Shown: piece by piece, positions 9,771-17,780 of the stretch | Layout of the letters: each line of letters begins with the position of its first letter | How positions within the stretch are numbered: the stretch's first letter is position 1 | Notes under the pieces: model-generated | Database searches by the model: none | The model's input: only the letters and a program-made list of their open reading frames with translations | What the model was told of the DNA's origin: nothing | Position numbers and translations under genes: made by a program | NCBI GenBank assembly: GCA_018335035.1 | Contig: JAGXKT010000007.1 | Coordinates: forward strand, 10,110 to 74,109 | DNA from: Phycisphaerae bacterium | GTDB lineage: Bacteria > Planctomycetota > Phycisphaerae > SM23-33 | DNA length: 64,000 bases | Direction of reading: 5' to 3'

Positions 9771-11093
9771 TCATTGCTCTCCGAACGCCTCTGCGTAGCG
9801 GGCGTGCATTTCCTCGTCGCTGATGGCCGTGGTCCGCCCGCTTTCGTACTCGGCGTCGACCCATTCGCGGATTTTCGCCAGCCGCGGGTCGTCCTTGGCG
9901 ACGTTGCCGCCGTAGTACCGTTCGATCCAGTGCTTGATGCCGGCCGCGCCCGATTTGTCCGTGATCGCCACGCCCATCGGGCGGTTGAGCACCTTCTGCG
10001 TGTTGAACGGGCTGTAGATTTCCTCGCTCTTGAGCAGCCCGTCGGCATGGATGCCGGCGCGCGTGGTGTTGAAGTCCCGTCCGACCAGTGGATAGCCGTG
10101 GGGGATGTTCACGCCGAGTTTGTCGCGGTAGTAGCTGGCGATCTCGGTAATCACAGGGTAGTTGACGCGCTCGTCTTGTCCGCGGAACTGGGCCGCCTCG
10201 ACGACCATCGCGCCGATCGGGCTGTTGCCGGTCCGCTCGCCGAGTCCCAGCAGCGTGCCGTTGCACGCCGCACAGCCGTACAGCCACGCGGTGGCGGGGT
10301 TGATCAGCACCTTGTGGAAGTCGTTGTGTCCGTGCCAGCTCAACAACTCGCCCGGCACGCCGGCGTCGTGGGTCATGGCGTGGACGATCTTCGGCACGGA
10401 GCGCGGTAGCTTGGCGTGGTCCCACGGCACGCCAAAGCCCATCGTGTCGCACAGGCGGATCTTGACGTCCCGACCGTACTCGTCGCGCAGTTTCATCAGC
10501 TCGATCGCGAACGGCACTACGAACCCGTAGATGTCCGCTCGCGTGAGGTCCTCAAAATGGCACCGCGGCACGATGCCGGCGTCCAGCGCCGCCCGGGCGA
10601 TGTCCAGGTACAGCTCCATCGCCTGGCGGCGGGTCTTCTTGAGCTTCAGGAAGATGTGATAATCGCTGCAACTGGTCAAGATGCCCGTCTCGGGCAGGTC
10701 CATCTCCTTGACCAGCTTGAAGTCGTTCTTGACCGCGCGAATCCAGCCGGTGACCCGCGGATACTCGAACCCCAGCGACCGGCAGCGATCCACCGCGTCG
10801 CGGTCCTTCTTGGAATACAGGAAGAACTCGCTCTGACGGATCAGCCCGCTTCCGCCGTCGAGTTTGTGCTCCAGCGTGAACAGGTCCACGATCTCCTCGA
10901 CGGTATACGGCGGTCGCGCCTGCTGACCGTCGCGGAAGGTCGTGTCCGTAATGCAGAGGTCCTTCGCCGGCGCCATCGCGACGCCCGCATCCTCAAACAG
11001 CACCCGCGGAAGCGTCTCGTAGGGAAACTGCTCGCGGAACAGGTTCGGTTCCTCAATATCGGCCAGCTCGTAGCGTGTCTCAGTCTGCGTCAC
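9771..11093 (-). CDS. DRE-TIM aldolase family, homocitrate / 2-isopropylmalate synthase-like; best fit is Re-citrate synthase-like
   Basis: 440 aa. Shows ITDTTFRDGQQ, HFEDLTRAD and HGHNDF metal/substrate motifs. The length and the lack of a LeuA regulatory domain resemble the Clostridium kluyveri-type Re-citrate synthase clade. GTG start. Confidence 0.6.
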   Translation of the reverse strand: MTQTETRYELADIEEPNLFREQFPYETLPRVLFEDAGVAMAPAKDLCITDTTFRDGQQARPPYTVEEIVDLFTLEHKLDGGSGLIRQSEFFLYSKKDRDAVDRCRSLGFEYPRVTGWIRAVKNDFKLVKEMDLPETGILTSCSDYHIFLKLKKTRRQAMELYLDIARAALDAGIVPRCHFEDLTRADIYGFVVPFAIELMKLRDEYGRDVKIRLCDTMGFGVPWDHAKLPRSVPKIVHAMTHDAGVPGELLSWHGHNDFHKVLINPATAWLYGCAACNGTLLGLGERTGNSPIGAMVVEAAQFRGQDERVNYPVITEIASYYRDKLGVNIPHGYPLVGRDFNTTRAGIHADGLLKSEEIYSPFNTQKVLNRPMGVAITDKSGAAGIKHWIERYYGGNVAKDDPRLAKIREWVDAEYESGRTTAISDEEMHARYAEAFGEQ

Positions 11094-11143
11094 GGGGTTG
11101 ATCCCTTTCAGCTCCGGGCAAGACGCCCCGGCACCGGCGATTC

Positions 11144-11170
11144 AAAAAATGGCGCCGCTCGGCCGGCGCC
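11144..11170 (-). terminator. Rho-independent-type terminator after marC
   Basis: Plus strand reads AAAAAAT GGCGCCG ctcggc CGGCGCC. On the minus strand this is a 7-bp GC stem followed by AUUUUUUGAA. It lies between the marC stop (11334) and the next gene's start (11093). Confidence 0.55.
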
Positions 11171-11333
11171 TACCAAAACCCCCGCCGATTCAGCACGATT
11201 CATTGTACTGCCGCCGCAGGGCGTTTTCAAATCGATTCGTTCGGCGCCGGGGGCGCTTGCGGCGCCAGAGTGGGCGTCAAGTGATTGTTTTATGTGGGGA
11301 TACAGCTCGTGTCACGTCACGCTGCCGCAGCCG

Positions 11334-11945
11334 TCACGGCGAGGCCCACAGCGCCTGGATGCCGGTGAAGATCATCTTGACGGCGATCGCGCCGATCAGC
11401 AGCCCGTTGAGCCGCGCCAGCAGGTTCACGTAGCGTCTGAAAACGTGCTCCCGCTTGCGGCGGAGCAGCTCGCGGATCACGTAGAAGGTCGTGACGATGA
11501 CAAAGCAGATCGCCACGGCCGCGAGGATCATCCCCAGCGTCACGAGCCAGTGGTGGTTGCGTCCGATGATGATGGCCTGCGTGATGGTGCCGGCGCCGAT
11601 CATGTAGGGCAACGCGATCGCCGAGGGCAGTTCGTCGAGCGAGCCGCGGAACGCCTCGGCCGCGTGATAGCCGTGCAGGGTGTACTTGTAGGCGATGACC
11701 AGGAAGATCAGCCCGCCGAATGCCCGCAGGGCGGGCATGCTGACGCCGAAGCCGTGACGCAGGATCGGCTCGCCGCCCAGCGCGCAGAGCCAGAACGCCG
11801 CCAGCGACATGACCGACGCGCGGGCCAGGACGCGGAAGAACTGCCGCCGCTCCAAGTCGTCCATCACGCCCAGAAGATACAACGACAGCGCGAAGGGGTT
11901 CAGGATGGCCGTGAAGGCGAGAATCGATTCCAGGTAGCCGTTCAT
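11334..11945 (-). CDS. MarC family (UPF0056) integral membrane protein
   Basis: 203 aa with six hydrophobic segments. The N-terminus ILAFTAILNPFALSLYL.. is characteristic of MarC/NAAT proteins. Confidence 0.8.
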   Translation of the reverse strand: MNGYLESILAFTAILNPFALSLYLLGVMDDLERRQFFRVLARASVMSLAAFWLCALGGEPILRHGFGVSMPALRAFGGLIFLVIAYKYTLHGYHAAEAFRGSLDELPSAIALPYMIGAGTITQAIIIGRNHHWLVTLGMILAAVAICFVIVTTFYVIRELLRRKREHVFRRYVNLLARLNGLLIGAIAVKMIFTGIQALWASP

Positions 11946-11973
11946 CGCGGGCTCCCGGGGCGCTCGGTCGAGC

Positions 11974-12804
11974 TCAGAGCCGCTTGGACCAGACGTTCAT
12001 ACTCTCATATCGGCCGGCGATGTGCGTGTTGTTCACCAATCGTCCGCCGTATTCATAATTCATTCGTGCGAAGGTGACGTTCATTCCGAACGACACCGCC
12101 CGCGCGATTGTATACGCCGTCGCCAGCCCGCGAGCGCGCATTTTGTCCTCCATGAACGATAAAATTTGCGCTGCCAGCCCGCCGCCTCGATCCCCTGGTT
12201 GCGTGGCGAAATCCGTCATTTCCACGTTGCCCGCCTCGGTGTTCATCTCGGCCGAGCCCAGCGCCGCCAGCCGCCTGCCGCGCCAGACGCCGAAATACGC
12301 CACGTGCGACGCCATCGTCTCGGCCAGATAGGCCGGATCGTCGATGGGGAAGGGGTAGCTGTCGAACACGTCGGCATACAGCGCGGCCATGTCGGCGATG
12401 TCGTCGGGCCCGCAGAGGCGGAGCGTGACGCCGGCCGGCAGGACGCCCGCACCGGCGCCGCGCTTGGCGCGGGCGGCGGCAAGGACCGCCTCGTGGCGGT
12501 CGGGGTCGGTCTCGTCGCGGCGGACGAGGTCGACGAAGCGGCTGACGAACAACCCGTCTTCGCGCCCGTTGAAGAGCCCGGCCGCGCGGGCCTCGACTTC
12601 GTACCCGGCGGCCTCGAAGGCCTCGCCTGCCGAGGCGGGCACCTTGGCGAAGATCTTGGAGTAGCCCCGCTCGCCGGCCAGGTCGTCCAACTGCGCGAGG
12701 ATTGCGGGCAGATCGCGCGGATCGAGCTTCATCACGTAGATGCGGTCGTTCTGCGGGCCGTGCTGGATGAGCGACCCGCCCAGTGTGGTGACCACGTCGG
12801 GCAT
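11974..12804 (-). CDS. ablB: Beta-lysine N6-acetyltransferase-like GNAT (AblB/YodP family)
   Basis: 276 aa. Shows LGGSLIQHGPQNDRIYVMKL.., YSKIFAKVP, and the C-terminal GNAT VEMTDFATQPGDRGGGLA..AYTIARAVSFGMNVTFARMNY..NNTHIAGRYESMNVWSK. It sits in the same tight cluster as the lysine 2,3-aminomutase. Confidence 0.75.
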   Translation of the reverse strand: MPDVVTTLGGSLIQHGPQNDRIYVMKLDPRDLPAILAQLDDLAGERGYSKIFAKVPASAGEAFEAAGYEVEARAAGLFNGREDGLFVSRFVDLVRRDETDPDRHEAVLAAARAKRGAGAGVLPAGVTLRLCGPDDIADMAALYADVFDSYPFPIDDPAYLAETMASHVAYFGVWRGRRLAALGSAEMNTEAGNVEMTDFATQPGDRGGGLAAQILSFMEDKMRARGLATAYTIARAVSFGMNVTFARMNYEYGGRLVNNTHIAGRYESMNVWSKRL

Positions 12805-12806
12805 CG

Positions 12807-13514
12807 CTATCCGTCCACCTCGACCAGGCGCCCCGAGCGGACGTGCTGGATGATCGTGTCGATGGTGCCGGTATCGAGCACCTGCCCGTCGGAGAGGTAG
12901 ACGCCCTGGTGGGCGGCCTTGTCGGCGAAGAGCACGTCGTGGGTGACGATGATGAAGTTCGTCTGATCGGACAGCTCGCGCAGCCAGGCGGCGAACTCGT
13001 CTGTCGTGTTGGCGTCCAGGGCGCTGGTCGGCTCGTCGAGCAGCATGTACTCCGGCTGGAGCATCAGCCCGCGGGCGATGGCGGCACGCTGCCCCTGCCC
13101 GCCGGAAATCTGCGACGGGTAGCTGTCGGCGATCTCGCCGATGCCCAGGCGGTCCAGCATCGCCCGGGCGTCGTCTTCCGTGCCGACTTTGTCGGCGCCG
13201 AGGACCTTGACCGGCGCCAGCGTCATGTTCTCCAACACCGTCATGTGCGGAAACAGGTAGAGGTTTTGGAAGACGATCCCCAGCGCCCGGCGATACTCCG
13301 GCTCGGGAATCTCGTAGATGTCGCGGTTGTCGAGGGTGATCCGACCGGCGTCGGGGCGGAGGAACTGCCCCAGCAGCATCAGCAGCGTCGTCTTGCCGGA
13401 GCCGCTCTCGCCCAGCACGGCCGAGATCGTCCCCCGCGGGAACGCCACGCTGACGTCCCGCAGGGCCTCGGTGCCCGTGTGGTAGGCGTATTGGACGTTC
13501 TCGACCTTAATCAT
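12807..13514 (-). CDS. Polar amino-acid ABC transporter ATP-binding protein (GlnQ/HisP-like)
   Basis: 235 aa. Walker A GESGSGKTT, signature SGGQGQRAAIARGL, Walker B LLDEPTSALD. Only a 2-nt gap separates it from the ablB start. Confidence 0.92.
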   Translation of the reverse strand: MIKVENVQYAYHTGTEALRDVSVAFPRGTISAVLGESGSGKTTLLMLLGQFLRPDAGRITLDNRDIYEIPEPEYRRALGIVFQNLYLFPHMTVLENMTLAPVKVLGADKVGTEDDARAMLDRLGIGEIADSYPSQISGGQGQRAAIARGLMLQPEYMLLDEPTSALDANTTDEFAAWLRELSDQTNFIIVTHDVLFADKAAHQGVYLSDGQVLDTGTIDTIIQHVRSGRLVEVDG

Positions 13515-14430
13515 GAGCGTAGCCCTTCTGGCGGATGCGTTCTTCCAGCCGACCGGCCAGCTTCATCAACGGGAAGGTGACCACGAAGAACATCAGCGCC
13601 ACGATGAAGTAGTACTTCATGGGCTCGTAGGTGATGCTGACCAGCGATTTTGCCGTATGGACCACCTCGACAACCGAGATGATCGAGATCAGCGCGGTGT
13701 CCTTGATCAGCGCGACGACGGAATTCATCAACGGCGGGATGGCGATGCGGAACGCCTGCGGCCAGACGATCCGTCGGAACACGTCCCATCGCGACAAACC
13801 CAGCGCTCGCCCGGCGAGCATCTGCCCGCGGTCGACGCTCATCAGCCCGCTGCGGACCACTTCGGCCATGTAGGCCATCGCGTTGATCGACAGCGTCGCA
13901 ATCGCCGAGGTGATCGGCGCGAGGTGCAGCCCGATGACGGGCGACCCGAAGTAAACGAAGTAAAGCTGTACGAGCACCGGTGTACCACGGATGAAGTCCA
14001 CAAAGCTGCGGGTGATGTAGTAGGCGATCCCGCGGTTTCGGTTGAGCACCACCCCGACCGGGACGGACAGAAAAAAGCCGATGGTCAGCGACGCCGCGGC
14101 GACCAGCAGCGTGATGGCGAAGCCCTTGCCGAGTTTACGGGCGACAACGGCCGGCGAAATGCCACCGTCGCCGTTGCCGACCGATTCACGGGCAACGGCC
14201 CCGTCGGCCGGCTGGGTTGCGGCCCCATTCGGTTGCGTTGTGGCACGCGTAGCGGGCCGCGTGGCGCCGGGCGGCGCGCCTTGCGGCGGTCCGCCGTCGG
14301 CGCCGACCGGTTGGGTGGTCAGCACGGCGGCAGCCAGCGCAACGCCCGCTGCGACGGTGGCGAGCCAGCCGCACGTCCGCCACAGCCGGCGTCGCGATGA
14401 GGGCGGCGATGCGTGGTTCTCCGAGGCCAT
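13507..14430 (-). CDS. Polar amino-acid ABC transporter permease (HisM/GlnP-like) with a low-complexity N-terminal extension of about 90 aa
   Basis: Track ORF 13507..14442 starts at TTG; the first ATG is at 14430 (MASENH..). Core motifs FIRGTPVLVQLYFVYFG and the EAA-like loop AGRALGLSRWDVFRRIVWPQA are present. Overlaps the ATPase start by 8 nt. Confidence 0.88.
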   Translation of the reverse strand: MASENHASPPSSRRRLWRTCGWLATVAAGVALAAAVLTTQPVGADGGPPQGAPPGATRPATRATTQPNGAATQPADGAVARESVGNGDGGISPAVVARKLGKGFAITLLVAAASLTIGFFLSVPVGVVLNRNRGIAYYITRSFVDFIRGTPVLVQLYFVYFGSPVIGLHLAPITSAIATLSINAMAYMAEVVRSGLMSVDRGQMLAGRALGLSRWDVFRRIVWPQAFRIAIPPLMNSVVALIKDTALISIISVVEVVHTAKSLVSITYEPMKYYFIVALMFFVVTFPLMKLAGRLEERIRQKGYAHD

Positions 14431-14541
14431 CTCAGGTGGCAAAAAGGGCTCTCCTTGCCGGCGCCTCGCCGGCGATGGGATCGTTCCAGAGCCCTGCCCG
14501 GCGGGGGCGCCACGTCTCGACGGACGAATGGTTCGTCGGCG

Positions 14542-15318
14542 CTAGTCGCTTTCGGTCGGCGGGCGTCCGAACCACTTCTCGTGGATCTCCGCCAGTTCGC
14601 CGCTGTCCTTGACCGCGCGGAGTGCCTCATTGATCTGACGCAACAACTCGCCGCGATCCTTGCGGATGGGGATCGCCATGCGCTCGGTGTACAGCAGCTC
14701 ACCGACGGGGACGAACGGCTCGCCGGCCTGCTCGATCTGGTAACTGCCGACCAGCCGGTCGGTGACGAAGCCCACGATACGCTCGTTGCCGATCTCTTGG
14801 AAGATTTCCGGCGTTCCGCCGTATGTGCGGACGTCGACGTCGGGATGCTTGTCTTCCAGGTGATGATGATACGTCTCGCCGAGAACGACGCCCACCGGCT
14901 TGCCTTCGCAATCCTCGATACCGTCGATCTCGTCGGCGTGGCGCTTGTGGACGAACAACTGCGCCCCGGAGCGGTAGTACGGTTCGGAAAAGTTGACCGC
15001 CTTCTCGCGCTGGGGCGTGATCGCCATCGAGCCGATGATGGCATCGAACTTGCGTGCCTGAAGCCCGGCAAGAATGCCGTCCCACTCGGTGGCAACGAAT
15101 TCAACCTCCCGGCCCATCTGTTTTGCGATGGCGCGGGCCACGTCCACGTCGAAACCGATTAGATTGCCGTCCTCGTCGTACGTGCTGAAGGGCGGATACT
15201 GCCCGGTCAACGCGACGGTCAGCGTCCCGTCGTCGCTGTCCTCGCAGCCGGCCAGAAGTCCTGCCGATAAGAGCGTTGCTAGGGCTGCCGCTATGCAGCA
15301 GATAACATCAAGACGCAT
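14542..15318 (-). CDS. Amino-acid ABC transporter substrate-binding lipoprotein (family 3 SBP)
   Basis: Internal ATG at 15318 gives MRLDVICCIAAALATLLSAGLLAGC (lipobox). Then comes LTVALTGQYPPFSTYDEDGNLIGFDVDVARAIAKQMG.. The track's upstream extension to 15495 overlaps the kamA 3' end and is Arg-rich. Confidence 0.88.
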   Translation of the reverse strand: MRLDVICCIAAALATLLSAGLLAGCEDSDDGTLTVALTGQYPPFSTYDEDGNLIGFDVDVARAIAKQMGREVEFVATEWDGILAGLQARKFDAIIGSMAITPQREKAVNFSEPYYRSGAQLFVHKRHADEIDGIEDCEGKPVGVVLGETYHHHLEDKHPDVDVRTYGGTPEIFQEIGNERIVGFVTDRLVGSYQIEQAGEPFVPVGELLYTERMAIPIRKDRGELLRQINEALRAVKDSGELAEIHEKWFGRPPTESD

Positions 15319-15329
15319 GGGAAGTCCTT

Positions 15330-16649
15330 TCAGTCGCTCTCGCCGTTGCGTCGCCCGAGGCGCTCGGTGCCTTCGGGCACCAGGGCAATGGTCTCGTCGT
15401 AGCTGTCCAGAAGCTTGGTAATGCCGACCGGGTCCTGCTCGGGCGCGTCCTCGGTCTTGAGCGTCAGCGTGCACTCGGCGCAGTTGCGGTCGCAATCAAT
15501 GGCGGGGTAGCTGTCCGGCTCCTGGTAGGCCGTGATGACGCCCTCGTAGTTCCGCAACACCACGCGGTCGGTGGCCCAACTGAGCACGTAGTTGGGCATG
15601 ACGGGGATCTTACCGCCGCCGCCCGGGGCGTCGATGACGTATGTCGGCACGGCGAAACCCGTGGTGTGTCCGATCAGCGACTCGACGATCTCCAGGCCCT
15701 TGCCCACTGGCGTTCGGAAGTGGCTGAGCCCCTCCGACAGGTCGCACTGGTAGAGATAATACGGCCGGACGCGGTTGGCGACGAGCTTGTGGACCAGGCG
15801 CTTCATGATCCGCGGGCAGTCGTTGACCCCGGCCAGCAGGACCGACTGATTGCCCAGCGGAAAACCCGCATCGGCGAGTTTCGCCAGCGCCGCTCGCGAT
15901 GCGGCCGTGATCTCGCGCGGATGGTTGAAGTGCGTGTTGATCCACAAGGGCTGATGCTTTTTGAGCATTGTGACGAGGTCGTCCGTAATGCGATAGGGCA
16001 GCACGACCGGCGTCCGCGTGCCGATGCGGAGGATCTCGACGTGCTCGATGGCGGTCAGTTCGCTGAGAATCCAGTCGAGCTGAGCATCATCCAGCAGGAA
16101 CGGGTCGCCGCCGCTGAGCAGCACGTCCCGCACGGCGGGGGTGTTGCGGATGTACTCGATGCCCGCGGCGATCTGCTCGCGGTCGGGGATCGAGTCCACG
16201 TCGCCGACCTTCCGCTTGCGGGTGCAGTGGCGGCAGTACATCGAGCAGACGTTGGAGACGTGGAACAGCACGCGGTCCGGGTAGCGGTGCGTCAGCCCCG
16301 GCGCCGGCGCGTCGGCGTCTTCATGCAGTGGATCGGCCATGTCCGCTCGCGAGACGTTCAGCTCGGCCGGGGAGGGGAACGCCTGCTTGTAGACCGGGTC
16401 ATTGCGGAAGTCGCTCCGGTCGATCAACGACAGGTAGTACGGCGTGATCGACAGGGGGAACTTCTCGATCGTCTTCTCCAGCGTCTGGCGCTCCTCGTCG
16501 CCGAATTGGATGCCCAAGAGTTTTTCGAACGTGTCGATGTCGCGAATGCGATGCCGGGCCTGCCAGCGCCAGTCCCGCCAGTGCGAGATCAACGTGTCCG
16601 GACTGATCCGTTCAGCGATTTGCTGCTGTATTTCTGTGAATTTTGGCAT
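15330..16649 (-). CDS. kamA: Lysine 2,3-aminomutase (radical SAM, KamA/AblA)
   Basis: 439 aa. Radical-SAM [12 protein letters not shown] and the conserved stretches [28 protein letters not shown] and PYYLYQCD. Confidence 0.93.
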
Positions 16650-16879
16650 TGTTTGTGCCTTTTATTTATTGACGCCTTGCTGACGCTAACGCGTGTTCTC
16701 GAACAGGGCTATGAGGCACAAGGCGAACCCCCGCCAGTGAAACGGCCGCCTCGATCGGCGATCAAACCATACCATACCGGCACCGCTCTTTCAAGTGCCT
16801 ACGGGAGGGGCATTTTCGACAGACCGCTGCCGAAGCGCCACCCCCGCGAGGAATTTTACTCCCCGCCAGCGGGATTTGC

Positions 16880-16907
16880 TTGACGGAACATCCAAAGGAT
16901 GGATAAT
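16880..16907 (+). promoter_or_regulatory. Candidate sigma70-type promoter (TTGACG-N16-GATAAT) for the PEP-CTERM gene
   Basis: TTGACG at 16880-16885 and GATAAT at 16902-16907, both frame-checked against track ORF 16795..17067. The leader of about 150 nt contains a perfect 8-bp hairpin (17012-17019 / 17025-17032) and an AGGAG Shine-Dalgarno sequence before ATG 17064. Confidence 0.35.
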
Positions 16908-17063
16908 GAGCCGCGTTGGAGGAGAGGCCCGTGAGCGGACGGCACTTGTCCGATGTGGGAGGGGCAGATCGCGGGGTTGCATGCTCATGCTCGTTGGAAT
17001 GGAATCTGTATGTGCCGGCACGGGGCCGGCACGGACGCGAAACGCGAGCACGAGGAGCGGGAC

Positions 17064-17780
17064 ATGAAACGGAGCACCTATTGGATGGCAGGGGTAGCGG
17101 TCGTAGGGCTGTTGGCCGGACCGGCGGCGTTCGCTGATACGTACACCGGGATTCAAAACGGAGACTTCAGCAGCACGGACCTGTCGGAATATTGGGATGT
17201 CCAGGTGCAGCCGGGCAAGGGGGAGAACGACAGCGCCTCAGCGACCGTGACGGACGCGGAACTGCACCTTAGCGCCACGACCGTGTTCACATGGAGCGGG
17301 ACGGTTTGGCAGGCTGGCGGCTACAGCGTGGCTGCGGTGGGCCAACCGATCGAGGAGACGCATGTCATGTGCGCCCCGGCCGGAACGGACGCCCTGACAT
17401 TTGTGACCGACACGATCGAGGTCATCAAGACTGATGGCTGGAACGAGTACGCGGCGGTCGGCGTGGCGGTGGACTACACGAAGAACGACGGAAGCGGCGA
17501 GGAGTCGGCTCGCGTGGAGGCGACATGGTCCACGACGGACACGGAACGTACTACGCGGACGCTTGCGATGCCGCATCTGGTTGTGAGCGAGCCGGTCACA
17601 GTCTCTGCCTGGGCGCAGGCGGATGTCGCGACTGACCCCAGCGGCGGCGAGAATATAGGCGATACGCGGACGATCGGCGTGACGGGCGAGTTGGACGATT
17701 TCGCTTTCATTCCCGAGCCGGCGTCGATGACGTTGCTGGCTCTGGGGGGCGTGGGACTTCTGCGACGCCGCCGGCGGTAG
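17064..17780 (+). CDS. Secreted PEP-CTERM sorting-domain protein
   Basis: Internal ATG gives the signal peptide MKRSTYWMAGVAVVGLLAGPAAFA. The C-terminus is FIPEPASMTLLALGGVGLLRRRRR (PEP motif, TM helix and Arg cluster). Confidence 0.85.
   Translation: MKRSTYWMAGVAVVGLLAGPAAFADTYTGIQNGDFSSTDLSEYWDVQVQPGKGENDSASATVTDAELHLSATTVFTWSGTVWQAGGYSVAAVGQPIEETHVMCAPAGTDALTFVTDTIEVIKTDGWNEYAAVGVAVDYTKNDGSGEESARVEATWSTTDTERTTRTLAMPHLVVSEPVTVSAWAQADVATDPSGGENIGDTRTIGVTGELDDFAFIPEPASMTLLALGGVGLLRRRRR

Follow-up and report, generated by a model that had tools for sequence, protein, structure and literature searches.

The stretch analysed here, 64,000 nt of contig JAGXKT010000007.1 (the window, to whose positions all coordinates refer unless a locus is named), belongs to a Phycisphaerae metagenome-assembled genome (MAG) and carries six genes on the minus strand, reading in one direction and filling 11334-16649. 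Among these a complete ABC importer of the PAAT family stands between ablA and ablB, the two genes predicted to make N-epsilon-acetyl-beta-lysine; a gene for a MarC-family membrane protein follows, just as the first-pass annotation of this DNA had listed kamA (ablA), an ABC system, ablB and marC in that order. Strict co-occurrence of the transporter genes with AblB, and the fact that in other lineages the same junction holds a non-homologous symporter instead of the importer, support a functional link between transporter and pathway. We lean, with little more than even confidence, towards a dedicated importer for acetyl-beta-lysine or beta-lysine, a substrate that we infer from the binding pocket and the distribution of its genes. 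Such an importer would bring in the pathway product or beta-lysine from the surroundings, whether to recover solute that has leaked out or to scavenge what neighbours release, and the six genes may together form an osmostress operon, for which salt induction would be predicted.

Identity of the enzymes and of the importer

AblA (439 aa; 15330-16649) matches PF04055 and PF12544 and scores 765.1 bits against the lysine 2,3-aminomutase model TIGR03820, for which the curated cut-off is 525.4, and it stays under the cut-offs of the sister models for glutamate 2,3-aminomutase (458.8 against 650), arginine 2,3-aminomutase (365.4 against 600) and EpmB (235.7 against 369.3). CxxxCxxC at residues 135-142 (beginning with C135), the aspartate of a QCD motif at 297-303 and the aspartate and lysine of IDAPGGGGK at 338-347 make up a motif set that is common to the AblA proteins of Methanococcoides and Prosthecochloris; following the Clostridium enzyme, we take these to be the radical-SAM motif, the pyridoxal phosphate lysine (in GGGGK) and the two aspartates for the epsilon-amine of lysine. 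The beta-lysine N6-acetyltransferase AblB (276 aa; 11974-12804) scores 329.2 bits against TIGR03827 (cut-off 205.1) and 24.8 bits against the GNAT domain PF00583, and the AblA and AblB homologues of Bacillus subtilis, included as a control, pass the same models. Judged by their sequences, AblA and AblB of the window are ordinary members of their families, and the host very probably makes acetyl-beta-lysine. The first-pass annotation had read the pair as a lysine 2,3-aminomutase and an AblB/YodP-type GNAT, and both readings hold under the profile searches that it proposed. In a Malonomonas MAG (L068:3713-6423), two more KamA-family paralogues, 39% and 36% identical to AblA, lie after ablA-ablB.

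The presence of these enzymes could also be explained by a use other than osmoprotection, in which imported lysine or beta-lysine would serve as a source of nitrogen or carbon or enter a beta-lysine-containing secondary product. KamA starts lysine fermentation in clostridia, and the kamA-yodP operon of Bacillus includes genes of catabolic type. However, the operon in the window holds no further pathway genes, MscS channels join the abl cluster in other phyla, and the habitat is a salt lake, as indicated by a salt-lake metagenome run that contains 0.97 of the sampled words of the locus. D-lysine 5,6-aminomutase was not found in the host genome (2.74 Mb, 82 contigs, 96.8% complete), an absence that adds little because the control genome was silent too. 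Taken with these points, a catabolic or secondary-product role appears very improbable.

The importer comprises a substrate-binding protein (SBP), a lipoprotein of 258 aa with an LAGC lipobox (14542-15318), whose true start is the ATG at 15318 rather than the TTG at 15495; a permease encoded by a single gene (13507-14442); and an ATPase of 235 aa (12807-13514). All features of a PAAT importer are present: a family-3 SBP (PF00497, 151 bits), a permease (PF00528, 77 bits) with the HEQRo N-terminal domain of three transmembrane segments (TIGR01726, 81.6 bits against a cut-off of 42.2, residues 103-198), and an ABC ATPase (PF00005, 121 bits). No component exceeds the cut-off of a characterised PAAT equivalog (Tcy, Gln, Art, LAO/His or Ehu). 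The SBP passes no NCBIfam equivalog at all, the permease stays below the models for cystine, ectoine and glutamine permeases, and the best equivalogs of the ATPase, which are GlnQ/ArtP-like, are also sub-cut-off; representative scores are 193 against 312 for the cystine SBP, 76.5 against 190.9 for EhuB, 131.8 against 197 for EhuC and 177 against 379 for GlnQ. The permease presumably works as a homodimer, and the lipoprotein receptor, permease homodimer and ATPase would represent a PAAT subfamily dedicated to the abl pathway. Orthologues of the SBP, with 52-78% identity, are present in all ABC-type abl loci.

Association of the transporters with AblB across genomes

Among 401 evenly sampled Planctomycetota genomes, 19 had an AblB-like gene. 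Homologues of the SBP (E<=1e-40) occurred in 10 of these 19 AblB-positive genomes and in 0 of the 382 AblB-negative ones, and the symporter subfamily described below (E<=1e-50) occurred in 3 of 19 as against 0 of 382, these being exactly the three genomes with an abl-linked symporter. The restriction of the SBP subfamily to abl-positive genomes speaks for a substrate peculiar to the pathway and against one that is a universal amino acid. Moreover, in two genomes (G173 and G226, loci L102 and L104) some 2 Mb separate the ABC transporter from ablA and ablB, which are adjacent there, so that its tie to AblB goes beyond physical linkage. In the same genus the importer is inserted between ablA and ablB in G243 (L103), and it was not found in a fourth species, G209. 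Within one genus, the ABC system may be inserted, unlinked or not found, and the symporter inserted or absent. The transporter genes are therefore both co-localised with the synthesis genes and phyletically tied to them, as is characteristic of an osmolyte cluster with its own importer.

Five of the 10 SBP-positive genomes carry a second, divergent cassette (L105:2049-7331; L106-L109) composed of marR, a KamA-family aminomutase, an AblB-like GNAT, a fused binding-domain-permease and an ATPase. Its aminomutase passes no equivalog model and keeps both aspartates of the lysine site, and its GNAT, at 212 bits, is just above the cut-off. The cassette shows that the importer has diverged along with the aminomutase and the acetyltransferase. 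In one further case (L118:6298-9737) the divergent cassette has a symporter in place of the ABC part.

The layout found in the window recurs in related and in unrelated genomes, which answers the comparison of gene order that the first-pass annotation had suggested. AblB was found in 4 of 40 relatives of the host, and all four keep the order ablA-SBP-permease-ATPase-ablB. A scan of one genome per species yielded at least 559 AblB loci, of which the best 80, together with relatives, were examined (84 loci). An ABC system lies between ablA and ablB in 14 of the 84, and in 2 more loci, from Sumerlaeota, that are cut at ablA; the ABC layout is thus seen in Planctomycetota and Sumerlaeota. The two genes are adjacent in 41 loci (and reversed in 2 more), including all archaeal and Desulfuromonadales loci surveyed, and are separated by a gene of 1.5 kb in 16. 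The latter is a Na+:solute symporter (PF00474) in 9 of the 10 junction open reading frames scanned, all 16 match the Prosthecochloris symporter, and the nearest models, PutP and PanF, are not passed. These symporter loci are distributed over Chlorobiota (Prosthecochloris), Kiritimatiellota, Lentisphaerota, Hydrogenedentota, Calditrichota, Acidobacteriota, Fibrobacterota and Planctomycetota; examples are L087:6541-7995 in Prosthecochloris ethylica, L027:4919-6352, L012:5143-6639 and L044:6400-7971. A gene for an MscS channel precedes the symporter gene in 2 of the 16 loci and in the further sampled genome G322 (L047:5603-7983, L071:5559-7888 and L112:5570-7841). In a tree of AblA obtained by a quick search, with modest support, the ABC and symporter layouts are interleaved in one bacterial part, and loci in which the two genes are simply adjacent fall into separate archaeal and Desulfuromonadales groups. 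The appearance of a symporter for an ABC system at one and the same junction is a non-homologous displacement.

Other arrangements were also observed. A Syntrophales MAG (L064:586-4926) has the order ablA-ablB-fused binding-domain-permease-ATPase, with the importer placed after ablB; a Planctomycetaceae cassette (L030:6262-7911) has a gene for a PtsI-like PEP-utilising enzyme between the ATPase gene and ablB; and at L010 a stretch of 780 nt between ablB and the ATPase gene gave no match in a Pfam scan.

Binding pocket and substrate

The nearest solved structure to the SBP is AncQR (4zv1, E 3e-49), and the alignment is gapless through the pocket region. We therefore mapped the pocket onto AncQR, taking the roles of its residues from PMC5431781, and compared 21 abl-linked binding domains. 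The carboxylate clamp (R83 in AncQR, R77 in LAOBP) is R104 in the window and the amine clamp (D167, D161) is D187, both invariant in the 21 domains, and the aromatic sandwich (F20 and F58; Y14 and F52) is kept as Y41 and W79. In LAOBP, AncQR and GlnBP, the acid D11/E17/D10 contacts the side chain of the ligand and the hydroxyl of S72/T78/T70 contacts its alpha-carboxylate (PMC5431781). The former position is T38 in the window, with Thr in 20 of the 21 domains and Ser in one, and the latter is A99, with Ala in all 21. In addition, the position before a conserved Thr, S126 in AncQR, is occupied by an invariant Glu, E148 in the window. Read in this way, the pocket would suit a ligand that combines carboxylate, amine and aliphatic chain but lacks a cationic tail, and an amine in a shifted position would fit as well. 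A pocket that lacks the side-chain acid should accommodate acetyl-beta-lysine better than lysine.

These data bear directly on the possibility that the ABC system supplies the precursor, importing L-lysine so that molar amounts of acetyl-beta-lysine can be made without draining the cell's own lysine synthesis. Among NCBIfam subfamilies the SBP matches the Lys/Arg/Orn binding-protein group best (170 bits, below the cut-off), its closest solved structures are binders of cationic amino acids, and the aromatic sandwich for an aliphatic chain as well as both main-chain clamps are retained. Nevertheless, the acid that would hold a cationic side chain has been replaced as described, the host has LysA, and a plain lysine importer would be useful anywhere, yet the subfamily turned up only in AblB-positive genomes. 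We consider lysine supply unlikely on this evidence. The first-pass annotation had offered lysine supply and solute recapture as two ways in which synthesis might be coupled to transport; the coupling is supported, and the pocket residues, together with the restriction to abl-positive genomes, shift the weight to uptake of the solute or of beta-lysine and away from lysine.

A general importer of osmoprotectants or amino acids (ectoine, proline, betaines) that is merely co-regulated with the pathway, in the manner of EctI, would account for the same layout. EctI of ect clusters takes up several solutes (PMC13342039), and the permease, ATPase and SBP give sub-threshold matches to EhuC, EhuD, EhuA and EhuB. 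Other osmoprotectant importers were also not found in the host: its genome yielded no BCCT carrier and no OpuAC protein, and the abl-linked SBP is its only SBP_bac_3 match. Ectoine synthase was not found either, an absence weakened in the same way as that of D-lysine 5,6-aminomutase because the control genome gave no match. In contrast, the pocket retains the Arg-Asp pair that is typical of binders of primary amino acids, and not an aromatic cage, and a general importer would not be expected to show a strict tie to AblB in two unrelated transporter families. A broad-range importer of this kind is in our judgement doubtful, even more so than one for lysine.

Several points nevertheless weigh against a dedicated importer of acetyl-beta-lysine or beta-lysine. 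The importer is accessory and not required, since 41 of the 84 abl loci have no transporter between the two genes. The co-occurrence counts are descriptive and carry no statistical test because the genomes are related and sampled. The pocket reading stands on a sequence alignment and not on a ligand-bound model, and the invariant Glu could instead pair with the epsilon-amine of lysine or beta-lysine in another geometry. Lysine is still a possible ligand because the nearest solved relatives of the SBP bind Arg, Lys or Gln. Finally, the association of MarC, which would be a further component of the module, is modest (see below), and the MarC protein is under the cut-off of its subfamily model.

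Fission of a fused receptor-permease gene

The core of the permease (13507-14139) begins at residue 103 and is preceded by an N-terminal extension of about 100 aa (14140-14442), which consists of an Arg-rich n-region, a hydrophobic signal/anchor helix (Kyte-Doolittle peak at residues 23-41) and a Pro/Ala/Thr/Gln linker. The low-complexity extension of about 90 aa noticed in the first-pass annotation is thus real, but slightly longer, and it contains an Arg-rich stretch and a hydrophobic helix in addition. The permease gene is separated from the SBP gene by a spacer of 99 nt (14443-14541), in which AAGGAG stands 8 nt before the TTG start of the permease. A structured spacer was considered and rejected, as its fold is no better than that of shuffled sequences (z -0.85).

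A single open frame encodes both binding domain and permease in 16 relatives; the junction between the domains amounts to 0-51 nt there, and the linker is short and non-hydrophobic. The gene is split in only six loci, one each from the window and its sister species and the rest from four further Planctomycetota MAGs, and only these six show the lipobox Cys, a spacer of about 100-250 nt and the permease extension. When binding domain, permease and ATPase are placed in a tree, the split loci group as one clade (SH-aLRT 98) nested among the fused ones, indicating that fission happened once, as a derived event, and that both halves made compensating gains. The 99-nt spacer and the permease extension are by-products of splitting an ancestral fused binding-domain-permease gene. 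The architecture of the fused relatives, with a binding domain and a short, non-hydrophobic linker, places the N-terminus of the permease in the periplasm; because it must be there, the freed permease gained a signal/anchor helix and a linker, and the freed binding domain for its part gained a lipid anchor. This history offers a natural example of what each half of a fusion needs in order to work alone.

Operon layout, MarC and neighbouring features

The six genes are closely spaced, with 11 nt between ablA and the SBP gene, the 99 nt described above, an 8-nt overlap of permease and ATPase genes, 2 nt between the ATPase gene and ablB, and 28 nt between ablB and marC; gaps and overlaps of 2-12 nt with one exception of about 100 nt had been reported in the first-pass annotation, which is accurate apart from the last interval. 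A promoter-like site, TTGAAA-17-TATGGT with a TG element (16766-16794, minus strand), lies about 117 nt upstream of ablA, and both of its hexamer regions are kept in the sister species, the same-genus genome G002. A terminator-like GC hairpin followed by a T run (11151-11170, minus strand) lies 164 nt past marC. These two sites, both consensus matches only, appear to bracket the six genes. Among the sequencing runs listed as containing the locus there is no RNA run. A scan of 11000-17200 with Rfam (E<=1) returned two chance snoRNA matches and no riboswitch or leader RNA; the riboswitches for Na+ and c-di-AMP that are known from ablA of Firmicutes are absent from the locus in that scan.

MarC (203 aa; 11334-11945) scores 70.4 bits against PF01914 (cut-off 23.9) and 65 bits against TIGR00427, below the cut-off of 99.2. 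Of 90 loci, 8 have a MarC gene less than 500 nt past ablB on the same strand; they represent at least four lineages and have ABC, symporter or adjacent layouts. The NCBIfam name for the family is NAAT transporters, and MarC probably adds a further membrane route for a neutral amino acid; that it moves a neutral zwitterion is a plausible, if tentative, suggestion. The host has two MscS genes, both outside the abl locus.

Downstream of the operon, an HMGL-like gene of the isopropylmalate/homocitrate-synthase family (9771-11093, minus strand), which passes no NCBIfam equivalog, seems to have its own promoter, given a promoter-like site at 11230-11202 (minus strand). Divergent from ablA is a gene for a PEP-CTERM protein (16953-17780, plus strand), and a PEP-CTERM neighbour with 32% identity also adjoins ablA in the sister species (L007:3191-3766). 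The GC content of the cassette, 0.654, lies within the range of the window (mean 0.674, sd 0.024), and recent horizontal transfer by composition was therefore rejected; the patchy occurrence of AblB among the relatives suggests an older transfer or loss.

Comparison with known systems

Acetyl-beta-lysine is treated as a methanogen solute, and to our knowledge no uptake system for it is known; our search of full-text literature found no description of transporters within abl clusters or of an acetyl-beta-lysine transporter. The solute is also missing from the Planctomycetota solute list of a 2026 paper on ectoine (PMC13342039). We entertain, at somewhat less than even confidence, a broader proposal: that the abl-linked ABC system and the symporter that takes its place in green sulfur bacteria, Kiritimatiellota, Calditrichota and others would be among the first dedicated N-epsilon-acetyl-beta-lysine transporters, that the two, with MscS and MarC, would make up an exchangeable module for uptake and release at the ablA/ablB junction, and that the Thr38/Ala99/Glu148 pocket would define the way in which a family-3 SBP recognises a beta-amino acid whose tail is acetylated and uncharged. 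If these transporters do carry acetyl-beta-lysine, the solute may pass between members of saline-sediment communities just like ectoine and betaines, a new class of substrate would be added for two transporter families, and the genes would be ready markers of the trait in metagenomes.

The closest known counterpart of the enzymes is the ablA-ablB operon of Methanosarcina mazei and other methanogens, attributed to Pflueger et al. 2003 where cited in PMC3543383 and PMC9337991. As in methanogens, both enzymes of the window pass the same curated models, ablA precedes ablB, and the presumed product is N-epsilon-acetyl-beta-lysine. Unlike methanogens, ANME and Desulfuromonadales, in which the genes are adjacent, the window has three transporter genes (2.5 kb) between them and MarC after them. 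The kamA-yodP (yodO-yodP) genes of Bacillus encode a homologous enzyme pair, in an operon with additional enzyme genes and no known in-cluster ABC importer.

With respect to the association of synthesis with transport, the best parallel is provided by ectoine. The ectoine clusters of Planctomycetota are found alongside importers of the Ehu ABC, TRAP or SSS type, and ectoine clusters at large also alongside MscS (PMC13342039); the importers of ect clusters include EhuABCD, TeaABC/UehABC and EctI (PMC13342039; Czech et al. 2022 cited therein), and one case of a mechanosensitive channel adjoining ablAB is known from a syntrophic propionate oxidiser (PMC11201294). Both types of cluster follow the same logic, joining synthesis genes with an ABC system or a Na+:solute symporter and sometimes MscS, and Ehu is also of PAAT type. 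They differ in solute and enzymes, the abl-linked proteins fail the Ehu cut-offs, and the abl transporter lies between the biosynthetic genes and not beside them.

At the level of the importer itself, the SBP of the window shares its fold family with LAOBP, AncQR and GlnBP and, like them, has an Arg that clamps the carboxylate, an Asp that clamps the amine and an aromatic sandwich; it differs from them in the Thr for the side-chain acid, the Ala at the S72/T78 position and the invariant Glu before a conserved Thr. GlnPQ of Lactococcus lactis, in which the binding domains are fused to the permease (solved as 6h30), belongs to the same PAAT family. The 16 fused abl-linked relatives resemble GlnP in carrying the binding domain N-terminally on a single permease, and they differ from it in having one binding domain and not two, whereas in the window a secondary split has produced a lipoprotein receptor and a permease that bears a signal.

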